NCBI GenBank assembly: GCA_002402455.1
Contig: DHFX01000006.1
Span: forward strand, 20,408-84,407
Source of the DNA: Candidatus Dojkabacteria bacterium UBA4813
GTDB lineage: Bacteria; Patescibacteriota; Dojkabacteria; SC72
Reading direction: 5' to 3'
Length of the DNA: 64,000 nt
Every line of letters starts with the position of its first letter. Position 1 is the first letter of the stretch. Shown piece by piece: positions 32,163 through 54,154 of the stretch. A model generated the notes under the pieces. That model was not told where the DNA came from. It searched no databases and saw only the letters and a list, made by a program, of their open reading frames with translations. The position numbers and the translations under genes are program-made.

Positions 32163-34493
32163 ATGTTACAAGAATCCACGCAAAATTCTAGAGAAGGAAT
32201 AAATATCTCAACCATACAGAAGTTTCTATTCAAAGGGCTATTATTTTTGCTCCCTCTAACTATTTTCCCCTTCCCTTGGGATTGGACAGAAAGAGGAATG
32301 TCTCTGTTGATACTCTTTGTTTCAACAGTAATCTTGGGTTTAGAGGTTATAAAGCTTCTCTGGGGAGGTACTTTCAGTATTCTAAAGAGTTCAATAGATA
32401 TAGGTTTTTTTCTAATCTTGTTCTCATATTTGTTGTCAACAATCTTCTCAGTAGATATAAACACTAGTCTATGGGGAATCGATGGAAGGTTGGGAAGTGG
32501 ATTAATTGTGTTTATTGCTGTTTTATTAGTAAGTATAGTCGCAAGAGGATTTATAAAAGGGGAAAAAGATGTTCGTTCTCTCATATTTATTTTTTTAATT
32601 GGCTTCTTTATTAATAACGTGTTGAGCTTGTTCTCTTTCTTCGGGTTTAATGTTTGGGGATTTATTCCTGTTTATAAAGACTTATATCAAGCAGGATTGC
32701 CTCTGTTAAGATTTGGAGGTGTCCATCTTCTTGTAAATTTTGTTAGTCTAATTCTTTCTCTAGGACTAATAGGTGAATATCTAATAAGTCAGAAAAGAAA
32801 GGTAGAATTTATAATGTCCATAATTTTTGGACTTTTTTCTGCAATAAATGTCTGGGTATTTTCTATCAATGAGGGTTTGGTAACAATCTCCGTTCTATTA
32901 GTTCTATTGATAGGATTATTGATCCCAGTGCTGAAATTTATAAAAATAGATAAAGAAACCTCGCGTCAGGTATTTCTTCTCTCTTTAATAACTGTTTTTA
33001 TAGTCATTATTCCCGTAATTTTCTTGCAAATTCCGAACATTAGGGAATCTATTTTACCTAAAGATTTAGAGGTAGTTTCCGAGCTTTCTCTCGGATTTGA
33101 CCTTTCTTGGAAGATTTTTGCTTCTACTATTGTTAATGGATTTGTACCGGGATTCTTAGGATATGGTTTGGGAACATATCCGATTGCATATAATAAATTC
33201 AAACCGTTAGATACAGGGCTTCTTTCTTTAGGGGACTCTACTTTTCAAATGGGGGTAAGCGAGGTTCTTACAAAAATTACTACTGGGGGATTTCTGTGGT
33301 TTTTTGTTTGGCTCTTTGTAGGGTTTTTAATAATCAAGTCTTTCATAAAGGATCTTAAGGATGCAAGAGAAATAAATGACACTAGTGGAGCTTGGAGATT
33401 TTTAATAATAGATGTTACATTACTGGTATTATTCGTTGCCTCTTTCTTCTTTTCATTTACTGTTTTAATAACTTTCTTACTACTAACTTTGGTTTCCATC
33501 CGGTCAATAATAAGAGAATATTTAAAGGGTTCTCCTGGGGATAAATTCATATTAAAGTTCTGGGCTGTTAATTTGGATAGTCTATCTAGTGGAAATAAGT
33601 CTTTATACAACTTTAATATTTTTCTGACGGTTATTGTCGCTATCATATCCGTATTTTTACTCGGAGTCTGTTTCACAAAAACAGTATCAAGCTTCCATGT
33701 TTTAGGGGCTGAGGCATACTCGATTAGAGAAAATAGAAAATATCAGGACGATCCGGAGGCTCAGCCAACACTTGAGGAAAGAGAGAAATTTGCGCTAGAG
33801 GTAGATAACTATTATTCTAAGGCTTTAGCTCTAGATGAGGATAACCCTTTTTACAATAGAAAGAAGGCGCTTATTCTACTAGAACAGTTGGGTGTTGTTG
33901 CAGAGGCATACTCTAAGATACCCGAAGAAGATACGGAACAGAGAGACCAATATCTACAAGCAATTATGACTCTTAAGAACAATGCCGTGGAATTCGCAAG
34001 AAAAGCAACAGATATCTCTCCGGCTGTTTATGCTAATTGGCTGACAAGATCAACAGTTTATACTGGTCTGGTGGGAGCAGGTTTTGATGAGCATATATCT
34101 GATGCTATAAATTCATTAGAGATGGCAATAACTCTCAATCCTCTTAACTACCAACTTTACAATACACTTGCCCAAGTTTATATAGTAAAAGGGGATCAAG
34201 CAGTTGCACTACAGTATCTATTAGAAGTTCTTCGTATTAATCCGAGACATATTCCTTCTATACTTCTAGCTGCAGACTTAAGTAAAGAAGCAGAAGATAT
34301 GGAGTCATATGTAGCTTACCTAGAGGCAGCAAAATTGATCCTTGAACAGGAAGAAGCTACGGAACTGGACCTTTACCAAGAAGTACTTACTGCTCTTGAG
34401 GAAGCTGATGCTGGGGATGTAGAATTACCAAAGGAACCTGAAGAAGGTGGGGAGGTAGGGGTACCAGAGCCGGATTCGGAGGTTTCTGAATAG
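32163..34493 (+). CDS. polytopic membrane protein with C-terminal TPR repeats (O-antigen ligase/Wzy_C-like architecture)
   Basis: About 12 TM helices in the first ~500 aa, then TPR-like helical repeats and an acidic tail (EEADAGDVELPKEPEEGGEVGVPEPDSEVSE). The family call is by architecture only. Confidence 0.45.
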   Translation: MLQESTQNSREGINISTIQKFLFKGLLFLLPLTIFPFPWDWTERGMSLLILFVSTVILGLEVIKLLWGGTFSILKSSIDIGFFLILFSYLLSTIFSVDINTSLWGIDGRLGSGLIVFIAVLLVSIVARGFIKGEKDVRSLIFIFLIGFFINNVLSLFSFFGFNVWGFIPVYKDLYQAGLPLLRFGGVHLLVNFVSLILSLGLIGEYLISQKRKVEFIMSIIFGLFSAINVWVFSINEGLVTISVLLVLLIGLLIPVLKFIKIDKETSRQVFLLSLITVFIVIIPVIFLQIPNIRESILPKDLEVVSELSLGFDLSWKIFASTIVNGFVPGFLGYGLGTYPIAYNKFKPLDTGLLSLGDSTFQMGVSEVLTKITTGGFLWFFVWLFVGFLIIKSFIKDLKDAREINDTSGAWRFLIIDVTLLVLFVASFFFSFTVLITFLLLTLVSIRSIIREYLKGSPGDKFILKFWAVNLDSLSSGNKSLYNFNIFLTVIVAIISVFLLGVCFTKTVSSFHVLGAEAYSIRENRKYQDDPEAQPTLEEREKFALEVDNYYSKALALDEDNPFYNRKKALILLEQLGVVAEAYSKIPEEDTEQRDQYLQAIMTLKNNAVEFARKATDISPAVYANWLTRSTVYTGLVGAGFDEHISDAINSLEMAITLNPLNYQLYNTLAQVYIVKGDQAVALQYLLEVLRINPRHIPSILLAADLSKEAEDMESYVAYLEAAKLILEQEEATELDLYQEVLTALEEADAGDVELPKEPEEGGEVGVPEPDSEVSE

Positions 34494-49123: not shown

Positions 49124-49381
49124 TTATATTCCTCTAAATGGATTTGAAAGTCTCAGAGAGTCGGCAGCTTTTCTGACTTTAGAGCTCTCCATCCTTCTAG
49201 GAGTAGTTGATCTGTTTTGTTGCTTCTCTTCCGCTTTTGATAATAGGTAAAGGTCCATTCCTTTCTGGATTGGGTCTATCTTTTGAGGATTAACAGCTTC
49301 TGTTACTAGATAATTAGAGACTTCGACATTGTTATTGTTCGTATTAGAGTTGCTCATTCTTATCCTCCGGATAACTTTCAA
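49124..49381 (-). CDS. small Asn-rich hypothetical protein (85 aa), doubtful
   Basis: Overlaps the 3' end of the VirB4 gene by 38 nt in another frame and is low-complexity (NSNTNNNN). It may not be a real gene. Confidence 0.2.
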   Translation of the reverse strand: MKVIRRIRMSNSNTNNNNVEVSNYLVTEAVNPQKIDPIQKGMDLYLLSKAEEKQQNRSTTPRRMESSKVRKAADSLRLSNPFRGI

Positions 49382-51818
49382 TTAAACCTTGTGGAGTCAG
49401 ATGTTCTTTCCCCTTCTGGATATCTTTGCGAGATTGCACTGCCTGACCGGAGAGGGTGTTACTCTTAATTCTATCTAAGATTCCCTTTTCCATTTCGGTT
49501 TTATCAGGACTTAATTGTTCTTCTTGTTCTTTTAATCTCTTTTCTAGTTCTTTTTGGTATTCTGCTCTCTCCATCTGTATGGTGCTTCTTTGTCCCTGTG
49601 TTCGTTTTACAGCTTCTTCAATAATTTCTTCCTGTCTTGCCATTTCTTCTCCATTTTTCATTGGTCTTTGTTCTGTCGGAGGTTCATATATTTCAGATAA
49701 TTGTTCTAAAGTTCTGGTATCTGGCTGACCCTCTCTTGTTTTAAGCTTTTCTAAATCTCTAGGGTCAGAAGTTATTAATTCATGTTCTGATACGCTGGAC
49801 AGTACTTGAATTCCCACGTGGTTTGAGCCTGCAAAGAAGAGTCCTTGTCCTTGATCACAGTTAAGGAGGAAGTTTTTTTCTCCATCTGAGAGATTAAAGA
49901 CCTCTTGTAGTTTTTCTACTGCTGTTGGACTTTGCATCATGAGCATTTGTATGGAAGAGTTTGAAATTATTGCCTTACCCATGTCATTGTTTAGGAAGTC
50001 CGCAACATCCTGAGTTATTGTGGACAGACCAAGGTAGTATTTCCTTGCTCTTTTTGCTATAGAGTACATAAATTTAGCAGAGTCTTCGGACTGCATCATA
50101 TACCAAGCCTCATCTACTATGAGTAGTCTTCTTTTTCTCTCCTTTCTAATCTTAGTCCAAATGAAGTCTAGCATTAGATACATAGCAAGGGGTTTTAATT
50201 CTTCCTGCAGGTCTCTAACACTAAAGACTGTAAATGGATTGTCTATCTCAAAGTTGCTTGCCTCATTGAAAACTCCGGCACCACTACCAATAATATATTT
50301 TTCCAATCTTCTTGCCAGACCATGTGCTTCTGTTTCTGCCATTCCCTTTAAGACTTTATATAAATCTTCAAGGAGTGGAGGAGTTTTAGTTTGAGTGTTA
50401 GGGTCGAATGTTATTCCTTTCTCACGATATGTGAGTATGAGAGCTCGATCCAGAATAGAGCTCTCAATATTGCTAAGTTCTCCAAGCATAACTTTGAAGA
50501 AACCTTGTAAAGCCAAGAGTTTCATTCTTAATTCATCATCTCCTTCTTCTGTCACACCGGAGAGTTCGAAAGGATTCATTTTATTTCCTTTGTCTTGTGA
50601 GAAGGAGATGTAGGCACCATTAACGGCTTTAGCTAAACTCTCGTACTCCCTTTCTGGGTCAATTATTAATATTTCTGTTCCCAACATTAGACTTCTTACG
50701 GCCTCGAGCTTAACGAAATAGCTCTTACCCGCACCGGATTTTGCAAAGACTACTGTGTTAGCATTTTCTAGTTCAAAGCGATCGAAGATTACCAAACTTC
50801 TGTTGTGTAGGTTTAATCCGTACATAATTCCATGATCCATGGTAAGTTCAGATGTAACAAAGGGAAAAGTTGTTGCGAGAGAAGTAGTATCCATATTTCT
50901 AGTTATGTACATACTATCTAGTCCGAGGGGTTGGCAACTTATGAATCCCTGCTCCTGTTGTAAGGTTGCAGGTTTTGCAGTTACGTTTATTGCGGCTAGA
51001 GTTGATGTGACATTCCTGGAAATTCTCTCAAGAGTATCTTTGTCTTTTGCATAGAGGGTTATATACATTGAGAAGTGGAAAAATTTTTCTGTTCCCTCTG
51101 CAATAGAATCCTGTAACTGCTGAGCATCTGCGAGTGCCACTTTTAGTGAAGGGTCTATAACTTTCCTTTCTTCCATTTGAGAATAAAGGGTAGCTTCCAT
51201 CTCTCCGATTTTCTTTTTGAGTTTTTCTAAAATAGTTTTGTTGTCTACCGGATAATAGAAGGTACTGATTCTTAATGAGTGTTCGAAGTTGATTATGGGG
51301 GAGAGCCAATTAGGACCAACAAATCTTGGGTATCCACTCACAAATAATGTTTTGAAGAAGTAATCTCCTATTTGTAAGTTGTTAAAATCCACTTCTAGGT
51401 CTATTGGGGCAATGATGTCTTGTATAGACATATCCGAAGGAATTAATTTCCTAACACTATGTGGGTCGTTATTTACATATCTGGTTTCCCAAGAACTTTC
51501 TTCTTCAGTTGTTTCTTCTTTAGATTTTTTCTTGTTAGAGTGCCCGAGTAGTTCGGTAACGTTATCCATGACATTTGTGATAATATTCCCTTTTTTCTTT
51601 TTTTCCTCCTCTTCTAGAGATTTTGTATCATTGTATCTGTCCTCCTTTCCCTCGGGGATGTTTTTAGCTTCCTCTTTAAGTTTTGAAACTTCCTGTCGGA
51701 ATGAGGCATACTTTTCACCGGTTGTTTTAAACTTTTCGGTTTGCTGTTCCAACTTTTGAGTTGTCTTTGTTTCCAGTTGTTTGTTGTAGTTGTTGTAGTT
51801 ATTATTTATGCCATCCAT
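49344..51818 (-). CDS. virB4: VirB4/TrbE/CagE-family type IV secretion ATPase
   Basis: Walker A FAKSGAGKSYFVK and Walker B LLIVDEAWYMM. A Gram-positive-type VirB4 N-domain block (GDYFFKTLFVSGYPRFVGPNWLSPIINFEHSLRISTFYYPVD). Preceded by a ~120-aa charged low-complexity N-terminal extension. Confidence 0.85.
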   Translation of the reverse strand: MDGINNNYNNYNKQLETKTTQKLEQQTEKFKTTGEKYASFRQEVSKLKEEAKNIPEGKEDRYNDTKSLEEEEKKKKGNIITNVMDNVTELLGHSNKKKSKEETTEEESSWETRYVNNDPHSVRKLIPSDMSIQDIIAPIDLEVDFNNLQIGDYFFKTLFVSGYPRFVGPNWLSPIINFEHSLRISTFYYPVDNKTILEKLKKKIGEMEATLYSQMEERKVIDPSLKVALADAQQLQDSIAEGTEKFFHFSMYITLYAKDKDTLERISRNVTSTLAAINVTAKPATLQQEQGFISCQPLGLDSMYITRNMDTTSLATTFPFVTSELTMDHGIMYGLNLHNRSLVIFDRFELENANTVVFAKSGAGKSYFVKLEAVRSLMLGTEILIIDPEREYESLAKAVNGAYISFSQDKGNKMNPFELSGVTEEGDDELRMKLLALQGFFKVMLGELSNIESSILDRALILTYREKGITFDPNTQTKTPPLLEDLYKVLKGMAETEAHGLARRLEKYIIGSGAGVFNEASNFEIDNPFTVFSVRDLQEELKPLAMYLMLDFIWTKIRKERKRRLLIVDEAWYMMQSEDSAKFMYSIAKRARKYYLGLSTITQDVADFLNNDMGKAIISNSSIQMLMMQSPTAVEKLQEVFNLSDGEKNFLLNCDQGQGLFFAGSNHVGIQVLSSVSEHELITSDPRDLEKLKTREGQPDTRTLEQLSEIYEPPTEQRPMKNGEEMARQEEIIEEAVKRTQGQRSTIQMERAEYQKELEKRLKEQEEQLSPDKTEMEKGILDRIKSNTLSGQAVQSRKDIQKGKEHLTPQGLIESYPEDKNEQL

Positions 51819-52456
51819 TATTCTTCGTCAGGGTTATATATTGTATAGAATTCAGATAATAATTCTTTAGTTGTTAACTGGTGGCCGAAGAGTCCCATTC
51901 TACTAAGTTGCTTAAGAATATGGTCTCTCTTTGGAAATAGGAAGATTTTAGCCTTTTCTACTAATTGGTCCGTTTTCATCTGGTTCATTTGCTCCTGTTC
52001 TTCTTTTTTCTTTTTGGAATCCAATATGTTTGTTCCCGGTATAGGTGCTCCCGGACTGTAAGGAATCACTATAAAGAAGTTCTTATCTAGGACATCATTT
52101 TGAATAATTAGTTTCTGAACAAAATTCGTGTATATATCTAACTGTTTTCTGAGTCCTTCACTCATCTGTTTTCTATCCATGCTGGTCGTTAGGTAATCTA
52201 TATAGTTAGAAATATCTATTCTTTTTGTCCTAATAAGGATTTGAATCCTGAAATTTAGGGAGTTTAGAAGTCCAGCGAATGCATATATTTTATTGTCTTG
52301 TTCGTACTCTGCAAGAAGGTCAAAGTTAATGGAGGAGGTTTGTATGACCATTGCCACACTCCCTTGTGTGGTTATTATTAAATCATCTTGGATATCTTTT
52401 ATCCCTAGATGGTCCTGTGTTGACGCTGTCGCTCTTGCTCTCGCTTTTTTATCCAC
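51818..52456 (-). CDS. hypothetical soluble protein between the PrgI-like and VirB4 genes, possible T4SS accessory or split-off VirB4 N-terminal piece
   Basis: No TM segment and no motif recognised. Its start overlaps the PrgI-like stop and its stop overlaps the virB4 start, which suggests translational coupling. Confidence 0.4.
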   Translation of the reverse strand: MDKKARARATASTQDHLGIKDIQDDLIITTQGSVAMVIQTSSINFDLLAEYEQDNKIYAFAGLLNSLNFRIQILIRTKRIDISNYIDYLTTSMDRKQMSEGLRKQLDIYTNFVQKLIIQNDVLDKNFFIVIPYSPGAPIPGTNILDSKKKKEEQEQMNQMKTDQLVEKAKIFLFPKRDHILKQLSRMGLFGHQLTTKELLSEFYTIYNPDEE

Positions 52457-52457
52457 C

Positions 52458-53279
52458 TTATATATTGTTAATTTTAATTGGCAACTTACTTCTTTTCTCT
52501 GTTACTTCTAGTTGAACTTTTGGAAATTCATATGTAGGATGTTGAAATTCTAACATATATGTACCTGGTTCCCATAATTTATTTGTTAAGAAATAGCCAC
52601 TTTCTCTAGTCTTATTTGCATAGAGGATTTTTCCGTCTGCAGACTTTAAGTATACAATAACATTTGGAATAGGCTTTGAATCTTTTGTAGATAACCATGC
52701 ATTTATATTCCCAGGGAGTTTGTCTGCATTAGCTATGTTGAATTGGTACTTAGATATATTATCCTCAGTAAGAATCATGGTATTAGGAATAAGTCGAGGA
52801 TCTACATTAAGTTCCTCATCTAACATATCTTTAGGGTCATTCTCTTCAGGTTCAATAGGGTTGCCTGTAGCGGGAAGGCTCTCTCCAATAATTTTCTTCT
52901 TTTTAATTTTAACGTCCTTCGGAATTAGTCTACCTTCTTCATCCGGTTTAAGTTCTGGTTTAGCTCCTTTCTCCTTTAATTCTTCATTTAACCATACCCT
53001 TTGTGTTGGATTTGTTATTGCTGTAATATAATTTTTTATGAAGACATCCGCATCTTGCTCATTTATTGGAACCAGACCCAGGAAAGCTCCTAGTCCAGAG
53101 GATACGATAAAGATTGGTATCCCAAGTAAAGCAGGAATAATATTTGAGACCACTAGGTATATCATGATTCCTCCAATACCCAAACCTATTGCTAAGTAGG
53201 CAAATTCCTTAAGAGTAAACTTCGTAAAGAGTTTAAACTCAATATCTAATATATTTTGCGGAATCGCATGTTGTCTCAT
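52458..53279 (-). CDS. PrgI/VirB3-like T4SS membrane protein with a C-terminal beta-sandwich extension
   Basis: The N-terminus IPQNILDIEFKLFTKFTLKEFAYLAIGLGIGGIMIYL plus a second TM helix matches the PrgI-family hairpin pattern from memory. A ~190-aa C-terminal region has carboxypeptidase-regulatory-like strands (VIVYLKSADGKILYANKTRESGYF). Confidence 0.45.
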   Translation of the reverse strand: MRQHAIPQNILDIEFKLFTKFTLKEFAYLAIGLGIGGIMIYLVVSNIIPALLGIPIFIVSSGLGAFLGLVPINEQDADVFIKNYITAITNPTQRVWLNEELKEKGAKPELKPDEEGRLIPKDVKIKKKKIIGESLPATGNPIEPEENDPKDMLDEELNVDPRLIPNTMILTEDNISKYQFNIANADKLPGNINAWLSTKDSKPIPNVIVYLKSADGKILYANKTRESGYFLTNKLWEPGTYMLEFQHPTYEFPKVQLEVTEKRSKLPIKINNI

Positions 53280-53326: not shown

Positions 53327-54154
53327 TTGAATATACTTACAATGTTTGGTTCTTTTAAGTTGTATTATAATGATTATATGGTAACGAGGTATGAAAAATT
53401 TAAAGATCTTCTCAAATTCAGAAAAACCATGGATCTGGGTCTTTCTAAAGATAAGGTAAGATATATATGGGGTAGAAGGTTTCTTAGGGAGTTGGAGGGA
53501 GAGGATATTAAGGACGACGGAGATTTAGGCCATGCATCTTTAGAAAAATTGGAAATAGCAAAAAAAGAGCTTCCTAAACTTAAGGTCTTTGATTGGGTCA
53601 GATTTGTGGGAGTATCCGGTTCAGTTGCTGCGGGTTTTGCAAATGAGAGTGATGACATTGATATATTCGTCGTAGTAAGGAATGGGACCATGTGGATTTA
53701 TAGGGCTATTGTCGCGTTTAGAAACGTCTTTCATAATAAGATTCGAGCAAAAAGACATAAAGATGTAAGAAATAAATTGTGTGTGAATTTAATTTGTGAG
53801 GAACGTGGTCTGGAATTTCCGAATGATATTTTTAATATGCATGAGCTTCTCTTCATGATTCCTCTATATAATGAAGAGTATAAAAGATATATTTTTTCTG
53901 TAAATCCGTGGTTGGAAAAGGACTTCTGTGTTAAAAAGGAGTTACTTAAATCAAGAACAATTCCAAAGGAAAGGGTGTTTTTCCCCCTTAGAGTTCTCAA
54001 TTTTCTTGCGTTTGTCGGGCAGTTAATCTTCATGTTTATTTCCGGTCATAATCCTGAGATGAAGAGATTAGTAGAGAATTACAAAAAGGGCAGAATAGAA
54101 TTCTTTGAATATAGTTTTCGTATAGAGAAATTGGAGAAATATCTTAATGGGTAG
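53327..54154 (+). CDS. nucleotidyltransferase-fold protein (Pol-beta superfamily), function unknown
   Basis: GVSGSVAAGFANESDDIDIFVVV matches the hG[GS]x9-13DhD NTase signature, and a later acidic pair (LICEE) is present. The first ~90 aa and the last ~120 aa show no recognisable family. It is the only plus-strand gene between minus-strand blocks. Confidence 0.5.
   Translation: MNILTMFGSFKLYYNDYMVTRYEKFKDLLKFRKTMDLGLSKDKVRYIWGRRFLRELEGEDIKDDGDLGHASLEKLEIAKKELPKLKVFDWVRFVGVSGSVAAGFANESDDIDIFVVVRNGTMWIYRAIVAFRNVFHNKIRAKRHKDVRNKLCVNLICEERGLEFPNDIFNMHELLFMIPLYNEEYKRYIFSVNPWLEKDFCVKKELLKSRTIPKERVFFPLRVLNFLAFVGQLIFMFISGHNPEMKRLVENYKKGRIEFFEYSFRIEKLEKYLNG

Follow-up and report, generated by a model that had tools for sequence, protein, structure and literature searches.

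In Patescibacteria, 2,272 TrsD homologues have been reported, 1,664 of which adjoin VirB4, the ATPase of the type IV secretion system (T4SS) (Quinonero-Coronel et al. 2025, PMC12102498). The TrsD gene is essential in Ca. Southlakia epibionticum ML1, the link between TrsD and VirB4 has been termed "remote homology", and no TrsD has an experimentally assigned function (PMC12102498). In Gracilibacteria, the TrsD homologues are located away from virB4 (PMC12102498), which leaves room for a function that is not strictly tied to VirB4. The main texts of a pIP501 review and of Guglielmini 2014 are silent on the function of TraD/TrsD. On plasmids, the family is represented by TrsD of pGO1 and TraD of pSK41 and of the pIP501 type (NCBIfam NF041427), whose genes lie between a VirB3-like gene and virB4. 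For example, the Bacillus subtilis plasmid CP120574 carries, in this order, genes for a CagC-like protein, a PrgI-like protein of 132 aa, a TrsD of 199 aa annotated by PGAP, and a VirB4 of 656 aa. The "TraD" of the pELF linear plasmids was considered as a further relative and was rejected, being an unrelated VirD4-like ATPase. Published work already covers the TrsD family, its place beside virB4, its link with the N-terminus of VirB4 and its abundance in Patescibacteria, and a Pfam family exists.

In this study, we analysed a window of 64,000 nucleotides (64 kb) of contig DHFX01000006.1 from Candidatus Dojkabacteria bacterium UBA4813. The sequence-only reading had pointed to an unknown soluble protein of 212 aa at 51818-52456, and an ORF of 212 aa with a GTG start is present on the minus strand at exactly these coordinates. 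A total of 930 homologues of the ORF were retrieved, the closest with 73-93% identity. The N-terminus MDKKARARxxxSTQ is kept across the homologues from residue 1-2, the C-terminal end YNP(D/E)EE is conserved, and identity is high along the whole length of the alignment, with a mean column identity of 79%. The GTG start is used in 23 of 76 relatives. The number of homologues, the conserved N-terminus and the use of GTG in relatives indicate that the ORF is a real gene. The protein has no TM-like segment, and its 19-residue Kyte-Doolittle mean peaks at only 1.31, which is consistent with the predicted solubility.

The protein does not stand outside described families. It matched NF041427 (TrsD/TraD) with 25.8 bits (E 8.3e-6), its residues 11-131 aligning with positions 13-142 of the 201-position profile. 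Although significant, this score lies far below the curated cut-off of 200 bits, so the protein is a distant relative of plasmid TrsD rather than an equivalog or a member that PGAP would name. BLASTP to an annotated TrsD gave E 2e-9 and 28% identity over 141 columns, with the common motif NFDLLAEYEQ. A second profile, the VirB4 of the Mbov_0397-family ICE of Mycoplasma (NCBIfam NF045975), can be used as a ruler. The 212-aa ORF aligned to its positions 99-233 and the VirB4 encoded next to it in the window to positions 179-879, so that the two window proteins tile one full-length VirB4 model, although both are distant relatives that score far below the equivalog cut-off of 590 bits. Most homologues in the list, among them P0001 with 93% identity, carry a precomputed match to the Pfam family PF26593 (TraC-like), as does the N-terminus of fused VirB4 proteins; among related loci, the match bears the tag "weak" in L004 and no such tag in L006 and L088. 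Its assignment to the window protein runs through these precomputed matches on homologues, since the local Pfam scan returned no such model even for homologues that carry one. A PHROGs search with the protein gave nothing meaningful, sequence searches of the PDB, run with the protein as well as a profile of 59 sequences, produced chance matches only (ribosomal S17, E 0.95; Mcr beta, E 0.7), and the literature search found no paper on PF26593. On these alignments, we assign the protein to the TrsD/TraD family (Pfam TraC-like), as a distant relative.

Upstream of this gene, on the same minus strand, lies a gene for a PrgI/VirB3-like membrane protein of 273 aa (52458-53279; Pfam PF12666 PrgI at residues 6-95, E 7.2e-7, 30.1 bits against a gathering threshold of 27). 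By hydropathy, this protein has two TM-like helices at approximately 26-70, followed by a charged linker. Its C-terminus at approximately 199-265 resembles a CarboxypepD_reg-like beta-sandwich, for which the Pfam matches are sub-threshold, and this domain is covered in 76 of 77 related loci. Downstream, at 49344-51818 (minus strand), lies the VirB4 ATPase of 824 aa without the TrsD-like subdomain (NCBIfam NF045971 conju_CD1110, 393.5 bits against a cut-off of 325; PF19044, PF12846 and PF01935). It matched the VirB4 C-terminal domain in PDB 4ag5 with E 4.6e-49. A K/E/N-rich extension at 1-~130 is followed by the second half of the N-terminal domain (NTD) at ~136-350. Walker A spans 359-366 and Walker B 565-570, and the E/Q/K-rich tail covers 690-824.

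The junctions were read directly on the minus strand. The gene had been described as overlapping both neighbours by start and stop codons. On the VirB4 side this is correct: the TrsD stop (51820-51818) and the VirB4 ATG (51818-51816) have one base in common in a TAATG junction (51816-51820). On the PrgI side, however, the PrgI-like stop (52460-52458) and the GTG (52456-52454) are separated by the single G at 52457, giving TAA-G-GTG (52454-52460), a 1-nt spacer that is still tight enough for translational coupling. In related loci, the TrsD/VirB4 junction is -1 nt in 26 and between -14 and +4 nt in most of the others, and the PrgI-like/TrsD junction is mostly -1 nt (26 loci), +1 nt (28 loci) or +2 nt (10 loci). 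A small conserved ORF of 77 aa, starting from the ATG at 49357 (49124-49357, minus strand), shares 14 nt with the 3' end of VirB4. This ORF has the motifs YL(V/I)TEAV and LSNPF(R/K)G in common with a 72-aa gene at the equivalent place in L004, tblastn found it in 46 of the 65 related loci with room for it, and the Pfam scan gave no match for it. It is probably a fourth gene of the operon.

The gene order was compared in 80 related loci, all from Patescibacteria MAGs and gathered with a Dojkabacteria-only alignment. Wherever the flank was readable, PrgI was upstream (68/68) and VirB4 downstream (71/71) of the TrsD-like gene, so the order PrgI, TrsD, VirB4 is invariant in the homologous clusters. 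The assumption that VirB4 normally comes straight after PrgI does not apply to Patescibacteria or to the pGO1-type monoderm class. The three-gene set is flanked by housekeeping genes (RecF, LepA, S20, HolA, Dcd, ThyX and SHMT), and its GC content is that of the window. Among the scanned ORFs of the 64-kb window, in which ORFs with no Pfam match at all remain, none had a Pfam match to a relaxase, a coupling protein (T4CP), VirB6 or a pilin. With such flanks, and with a weak sub-threshold Pfam match to IF-2B (E 0.17), the protein might be taken for a housekeeping one, unrelated to the two T4SS genes that happen to enclose it. When the ORF and three homologues were scanned against the local Pfam copy, IF-2B matches stayed sub-threshold throughout (E 0.017-0.17) and were rejected as chance. 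Sequence and profile searches gave no significant match to any housekeeping family, whereas different methods agree on significant links with TrsD and with the N-terminus of VirB4. Together with the invariant synteny, this homology refutes the housekeeping reading, to which we give practically no weight.

The sequence-only reading had weighed a novel accessory subunit against a split-off N-terminal segment of VirB4, and natural fusions bear directly on this choice. In the fused VirB4 P0286 (MEK7091100.1, Patescibacteria, 787 aa), residues 7-199 align to the 212-aa ORF (E 1e-43) and residues 213-767 to residues 136-689 of the window VirB4 with 58% identity; a sequence of the same length occurs in several independent assemblies. 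In a fused VirB4 from a Brevibacillus plasmid, residues 40-104 match the 212-aa ORF and residues 228-811 align with residues 153-706 of the window VirB4. In the alignments to both fused proteins, the window VirB4 lacks exactly the segment that the 212-aa ORF supplies. Comparison of the ORF profile with the fused VirB4 profile by hhalign gave a probability of 100% (E 3.8e-40, positions 13-211). Fused VirB4s (~790-840 aa) and unfused VirB4s (~600 aa) with 82-88% identity in the common region occur together among the matches, those with a named source being from Amesbacteria. In one syntenic pair, L087 encodes PrgI and a fused VirB4, and L088 encodes PrgI, CarboxypepD_reg, a TraC-like protein and VirB4.

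The existence of fused versions elsewhere, and the fact that the two window ORFs are adjacent, in different frames and have one base in common, could suggest that a frameshift or an assembly error broke a single VirB4 gene in this genome, leaving an artefact or a pseudogene. Against this, the split is seen in 71 of 71 related species-level genomes, both the start of the 212-aa ORF and its C-terminal end, noted above, are conserved, its homologues are highly similar throughout, and VirB4 has its own ATG and an extension of ~130 residues without a counterpart in the fused proteins. The conservation of the split refutes a frameshift, and we consider an artefact extremely improbable.

The structural comparison pointed to the same part of VirB4. 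The AF2 model of the 212-aa ORF had a pLDDT of 76, and in a Foldseek search of the PDB its top 12 matches were all TrwK/VirB4, the VirB4 of R388, although the TM-scores of the isolated domain were modest (0.33-0.47). The check by structure prediction and Foldseek thus bore out a similarity of fold to the solved VirB4 NTD. The model of the fused P0286 aligned 680 residues to TrwK. Sequence identity to the NTD of R388 TrwK (PDB 7O42/7O41/8RTB, residues 15-400) is only ~10-13%. The NTD is covalently part of VirB4 in R388, whereas in the window its first half is a separate gene and its second half stays in VirB4. VirB3 of R388 wraps around the NTD of VirB4, and NTDs alone form the dimer interface (PMC9259494). 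An internal duplication, with the TrsD-like part resembling the second half of the VirB4 NTD, was also considered. The order of secondary structures is similar, yet the hhalign probability was just 0.6-7.5%, so a duplication has no support in sequence.

The colinear fusions, the profile match and the structural match favour a split-off VirB4 N-terminus over a novel accessory subunit. Novelty is also contradicted by the family itself, which is known from conjugative plasmids of Firmicutes and has been published as the most abundant T4SS component beside virB4 in Patescibacteria (PMC12102498). The protein neither belongs to an unrelated housekeeping family nor is absent from homologous VirB4 clusters. 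The evidence supports the view that it is the detached first ~200 residues, that is, the first subdomain, of the VirB4 NTD with a gene of its own. On the homology, the colinearity with fused VirB4, the fold similarity to R388 VirB4 and the invariant synteny, we are highly confident that this TrsD/TraD-family protein is this part of the NTD as a separate polypeptide, co-translated with the PrgI/VirB3-like protein and an N-terminally truncated VirB4. It probably also serves as a structural subunit of the ATPase.

The PrgI/VirB3-like, TrsD-like and truncated VirB4 proteins come from one tightly packed chromosomal operon of this Dojkabacteria-like Patescibacterium. The TrsD-like protein would bind the VirB4 core non-covalently at a ratio of about 1:1, as the fusions, the synteny and the R388 structure suggest, and would thereby rebuild the complete NTD. 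In R388, the corresponding domain is the one that VirB3 wraps around and that VirB4 protomers use to dimerise and to sit on the membrane. The subunit would couple the motor to the PrgI-like anchor of a monoderm-type T4SS. In our analysis, the 212-aa protein most likely completes the VirB4 NTD that docks onto VirB3/PrgI.

A descendant of the VirB4 N-terminus could also act outside the ATPase body, with transient binding or another stoichiometry. It would then be an independent factor with an accessory or regulatory role, such as that of a substrate adaptor or a chaperone for assembly. The disordered Q/P/T-rich tails of 100-500 residues on most homologues in other Patescibacteria are compatible with such a role, as are the Gracilibacteria TrsD genes away from virB4 (PMC12102498). 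However, chaperone-like structural matches extend over just ~80-90 residues, in an alpha/beta fold that is common, and their scores stay under that of TrwK (141 residues), and the partner VirB4 lacks exactly the TrsD segment. Fused and split forms also alternate between close relatives with the same neighbours, a pattern to be expected only if the piece has one and the same working position, whether fused or split. We therefore regard an independent factor as unlikely and prefer the structural subunit. It is conceivable, though doubtful, that the split is not neutral. With a free TrsD, the cell might be able to dose the half of the NTD responsible for membrane docking and dimerisation independently of the motor; subunits consisting of TrsD alone could take the place of the "outer" VirB4 ring of R388 or gate the assembly of the ATPase on the PrgI-like anchor; and the disordered segment, on either side of the break according to lineage, might be a tether or a platform for cargo or host factors.

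Compared with plasmid TrsD/TraD, the window protein is likewise ~200 aa long, without an enzymatic motif and encoded in the same place, but has just 28% identity over the first ~130 residues, and its gene is chromosomal, in housekeeping surroundings, with no relaxase or coupling protein detected in the 64 kb. It agrees with the TrsD of Patescibacteria T4SS (PMC12102498) in its PrgI/VirB3-like and VirB4 neighbours, its chromosomal site and the lack of a relaxase, and is one more member of that set. In the single cultivated Patescibacterium that has been tested, this secretion system is essential for epibiotic growth. Within Patescibacteria, the disordered segment forms the N-terminus of VirB4 in the Dojkabacteria type, whereas most other lineages carry it as a long tail at the C-terminus of TrsD. 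Our addition is small. Where PMC12102498 described remote homology, the direct fusions inside Patescibacteria show a plain split and fusion relation, with TrsD and the truncated VirB4 as the two halves of a single protein, and this gives a TrsD protein of no assigned function a concrete, testable role.

The sequence-only reading had placed a soluble 212-aa protein at 51818-52456, between a PrgI-like gene and VirB4; an ORF of that length occupies exactly these coordinates on the minus strand, no TM-like segment was found in the ORF, and both neighbours had been rightly noticed. The PrgI-like ORF (52458-53279, minus strand, 273 aa) lies directly upstream; its residues 1-95 match Pfam PrgI over the gathering score, and its final ~70 residues match CarboxypepD_reg-like beta-sandwich models of Pfam below threshold. 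VirB4 (49344-51818, minus strand, 824 aa) lies directly downstream. It scored 393 bits (cut-off 325) with the NCBIfam CD1110-family VirB4 model, was also matched by P-loop_TraG, AAA_10 and DUF87, and aligned with PDB 4ag5, a VirB4 C-terminal domain (E = 4.6e-49). Start/stop overlaps had been described on both sides; the VirB4 side does overlap by 1 nt (TAATG), but the PrgI side has a 1-nt spacer (TAA-G-GTG). Judging from the homologues, the GTG start of the ORF is secure: MDKKARARxxxSTQ is kept from the first residues onward in 24 of them, and no alternative start codon was found between the PrgI-like stop and the invariant Q14.

The G+C content of the three genes was 34-38%, equal to that of the window (36.5%). 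Their surroundings are housekeeping genes: RecF, LepA, S20, HolA and an LCP protein lie to one side, a Lon-like AAA protein, Dcd, ThyX, SHMT and FolD to the other, and RpoB/C, DnaK, GroEL, DnaG, FtsK and sigma-70 farther out. Pfam matches to a relaxase, coupling protein, VirB6 or pilin were absent from those window ORFs that were scanned.

The flagged ORF matched nothing in the local Pfam copy or PHROGs. The NCBIfam TrsD/TraD conjugative transfer protein model gave a significant, sub-threshold match (E = 8.3e-6); because the curated TrsD cut-off was failed, we filed the protein, on sequence grounds, as a distant TrsD/TraC-like superfamily member rather than an equivalog of plasmid TrsD. In the 894-position Mycoplasma ICE VirB4 model of NCBIfam, the ORF fell on positions 99-233 (E = 2.7e-8, sub-threshold), and the window VirB4 covered positions 179-879. 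Among 5.8 billion proteins searched, 930 homologues were found; the 120 nearest (~211 aa, 73-93% identity) nearly all carried precomputed PF26593 ('TraC-like'), and those with a source name came mainly from Candidatus Dojkabacteria/WS6 MAGs, with one from Microgenomates.

When 1.84 billion cluster representatives were scanned in full with HMMER for the TrsD-like domain, 1,550 matched. Among the best 150, the domain was almost always N-terminal (about residues 5-205) in proteins of 205-787 aa, and the longer ones mostly carried Q/P/T/S-rich low-complexity tails behind a YTTPLV-like motif. One match is a true TrsD-VirB4 fusion: P0286 (MEK7091100.1, 'Patescibacteria group bacterium'), of 787 aa; several independent assemblies contain a sequence of the same length. 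Its residues 7-199 match the flagged ORF (40% identity, E = 1e-43), and residues 213-767 match residues 136-689 of the window VirB4 (58% identity). With P0286 as query, we recovered many fused VirB4s of ~790-840 aa with PF26593 plus P-loop_TraG, as well as unfused ~600-aa VirB4s that were 82-88% identical across the common part; source-named matches were Candidatus Amesbacteria or Microgenomates. Two Amesbacteria loci with the same neighbours, L087 and L088, are in the fused and split state, respectively: PrgI (259 aa) followed by a fused VirB4 (794 aa), and PrgI (172 aa), CarboxypepD_reg (110 aa), TraC-like (217 aa) and VirB4 (641 aa).

In a profile-profile comparison, the free-standing family matched the VirB4 alignment with 100% probability (E = 3.8e-40), falling on positions 13-211 of the fused proteins. 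By this homology, the flagged ORF is a homologue of the first ~200 VirB4 residues, and the window VirB4 is without exactly that part, having a ~130-residue K/E/N-rich extension instead. The sequence-only suggestion of a split-off VirB4 N-terminal segment was thus right, the fusions being colinear. Beside this match, an unrelated housekeeping protein, as the flanking genes might suggest, has next to no probability.

Several features of these proteins were observed in passing. Long charged low-complexity stretches extend the window VirB4 at both ends (residues 1-130 and 690-824). In most other Patescibacteria (P0183-P0331), it is instead the TrsD-like protein that carries the disordered segment, as a Q/P/T/S-rich C-terminal tail of 100-500 residues behind the YTTPLV-like motif; the natural fusions are without such a linker. 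Inteins and LAGLIDADG homing-endonuclease domains (PF14890, PF14528) interrupt several Patescibacteria VirB4 homologues of 1,160-1,215 aa (P0382, P0383, P0386, P0392, P0393, P0434, P0436, P0445 and P0461).

The AF2 model of the flagged ORF (59-sequence alignment; mean pLDDT 76, pTM 0.67) showed an alpha/beta fold that includes a single long helix. In a Foldseek search of the PDB, each of the first 12 matches was a TrwK/VirB4 chain of R388 (probability up to 0.99, E = 5e-3, TM 0.33-0.47). The first 200 residues of the P0286 model (pLDDT 77.5) had the same element order. Strand and helix order was also similar between its TrsD-like part (residues 16-198) and the next half of the N-terminal domain (218-360); the old internal duplication hinted at by this order was unsupported by hhalign (probability only 0.6-7.5%).

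In R388, the VirB4 N-terminal domain (residues 15-400) is wrapped by VirB3, and the VirB4 dimer interface is formed by these domains only (PMC9259494). We believe that the flagged protein would re-associate with the VirB4 core and complete its N-terminal domain, which would then offer a surface where the VirB3/PrgI anchor could dock and where VirB4 molecules could contact each other at the membrane. Its identity as a VirB4 N-terminal piece with a general role in the ATPase is highly probable, and a 1:1 structural subunit with the VirB4 core is somewhat favoured. Set beside the fusions and the R388 matches, it is improbable that this soluble, separately encoded protein is a diverged accessory or chaperone.

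One genome per species was scanned for gene order, giving 104 relatives and 80 kept loci, all in Patescibacteria MAGs (Dojkabacteria, or submitter-labelled 'Saccharibacteria' or 'Microgenomates'). A PrgI-like gene adjoined the TrsD-like gene upstream in all 68 loci with room, and VirB4 adjoined it downstream in 71 of 71. The PrgI-to-TrsD spacing was mainly -1, +1 or +2 nt; the TrsD-to-VirB4 spacing was -1 (TAATG) in 26 loci and mainly -14 to +4 in the remainder. Of the TrsD start codons, 51 were ATG and 23 GTG. A 724-kb Dojkabacteria contig had a wider neighbourhood identical in order to the window's: S20, two small membrane proteins, LepA, RecF, a nucleotidyltransferase-like gene, the operon, the Lon-like AAA protein and Dcd. 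Fused relatives exist, yet against this recurrence a frameshift artefact as the origin of the split is vanishingly unlikely.

TrsD has been reported as the most abundant T4SS component in Patescibacteria, with 2,272 homologues, 1,664 of them adjoining VirB4; the homologue of Ca. S. epibionticum ML1 is essential, and TrsD was left without an assigned function (Quinonero-Coronel et al. 2025, PMC12102498). Patescibacteria T4SS are also treated in a 2025 nomenclature review (PMC12857230). The TrsD-like gene beside VirB4 is real and ordinary for this lineage, and the finding is already published; the proposal of a novel accessory subunit does not hold as to novelty.

Other genes were also observed in passing. 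At 273 aa, the PrgI/VirB3-like protein of the window has roughly double the usual length of ~117 aa. Its C-terminal CarboxypepD_reg-like beta-sandwich comes after a charged linker and is kept in 76 of 77 related loci; in L088 the domain is a separate 110-aa gene (PrgI-like genes with or beside the domain: L087 4229-5008, L088 3385-4337). If the usual VirB3 topology applies, the domain would be cytoplasmic, an unusual place for this fold. A small ORF at 49124-49357 (minus strand) encodes 77 aa when read from the ATG at 49357, and it has 14 nt in common with the 3' end of VirB4. It shares YL(V/I)TEAV and LSNPF(R/K)G with a 72-aa gene called at the equivalent position on a Dojkabacteria contig, was detected by tblastn in 46 of 65 related loci, had no Pfam match, and is possibly a fourth operon gene. 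Divergent from the PrgI-like gene lies a nucleotidyltransferase-fold gene (53327-54154, plus strand; NTP_transf_2, E = 1e-4). The matching position holds a 265-aa gene in the Dojkabacteria locus L004 (6286-7083) and a HepT/MNT (NTP_transf_2) toxin-antitoxin pair upstream in L087 (1889-2739) and L088 (2457-3303); such neighbours may be a coincidence. A 776-aa ORF (32163-34493, plus strand) with some 13 TM-like segments and a helical-repeat-like region at its C-terminus had no Pfam match; its product may be a membrane protein of glycosyltransferase or ligase type, or perhaps a divergent T4SS membrane component.

By tblastn, the flagged ORF matched 126 plasmid records; most came from Firmicutes such as Bacillus, Paenibacillus, Clostridium and their relatives, and 17 were from Spiroplasma. 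In pIP501, traD presumably lies between traC and traE. The nomenclature review calls pIP501 traC 'immediately adjacent' to traE(VirB4) (PMC12857230). On B. subtilis plasmid CP120574, the only annotated-trsD plasmid inspected, the TrsD/TraD gene separates the VirB3-like gene from VirB4, in the order CagC-like, PrgI-like (132 aa), TrsD (199 aa) and VirB4 (656 aa); this PGAP-annotated TrsD matched the flagged ORF (E = 2e-9), with NFDLLAEYEQ common to both. Similarly, a Pontibacillus plasmid has a PrgI-like gene (119 aa), a 281-aa homologue matching the flagged ORF over its full length (BLASTP E = 5e-23) and a CD1110-family VirB4 (621 aa). In contrast, Brevibacillus pBbsI has a 114-aa small protein followed by a single 816-aa 'TraC family' VirB4, of which residues 40-104 match the flagged ORF (E = 5e-10) and residues 228-811 match residues 153-706 of the window VirB4 (E = 3e-47).
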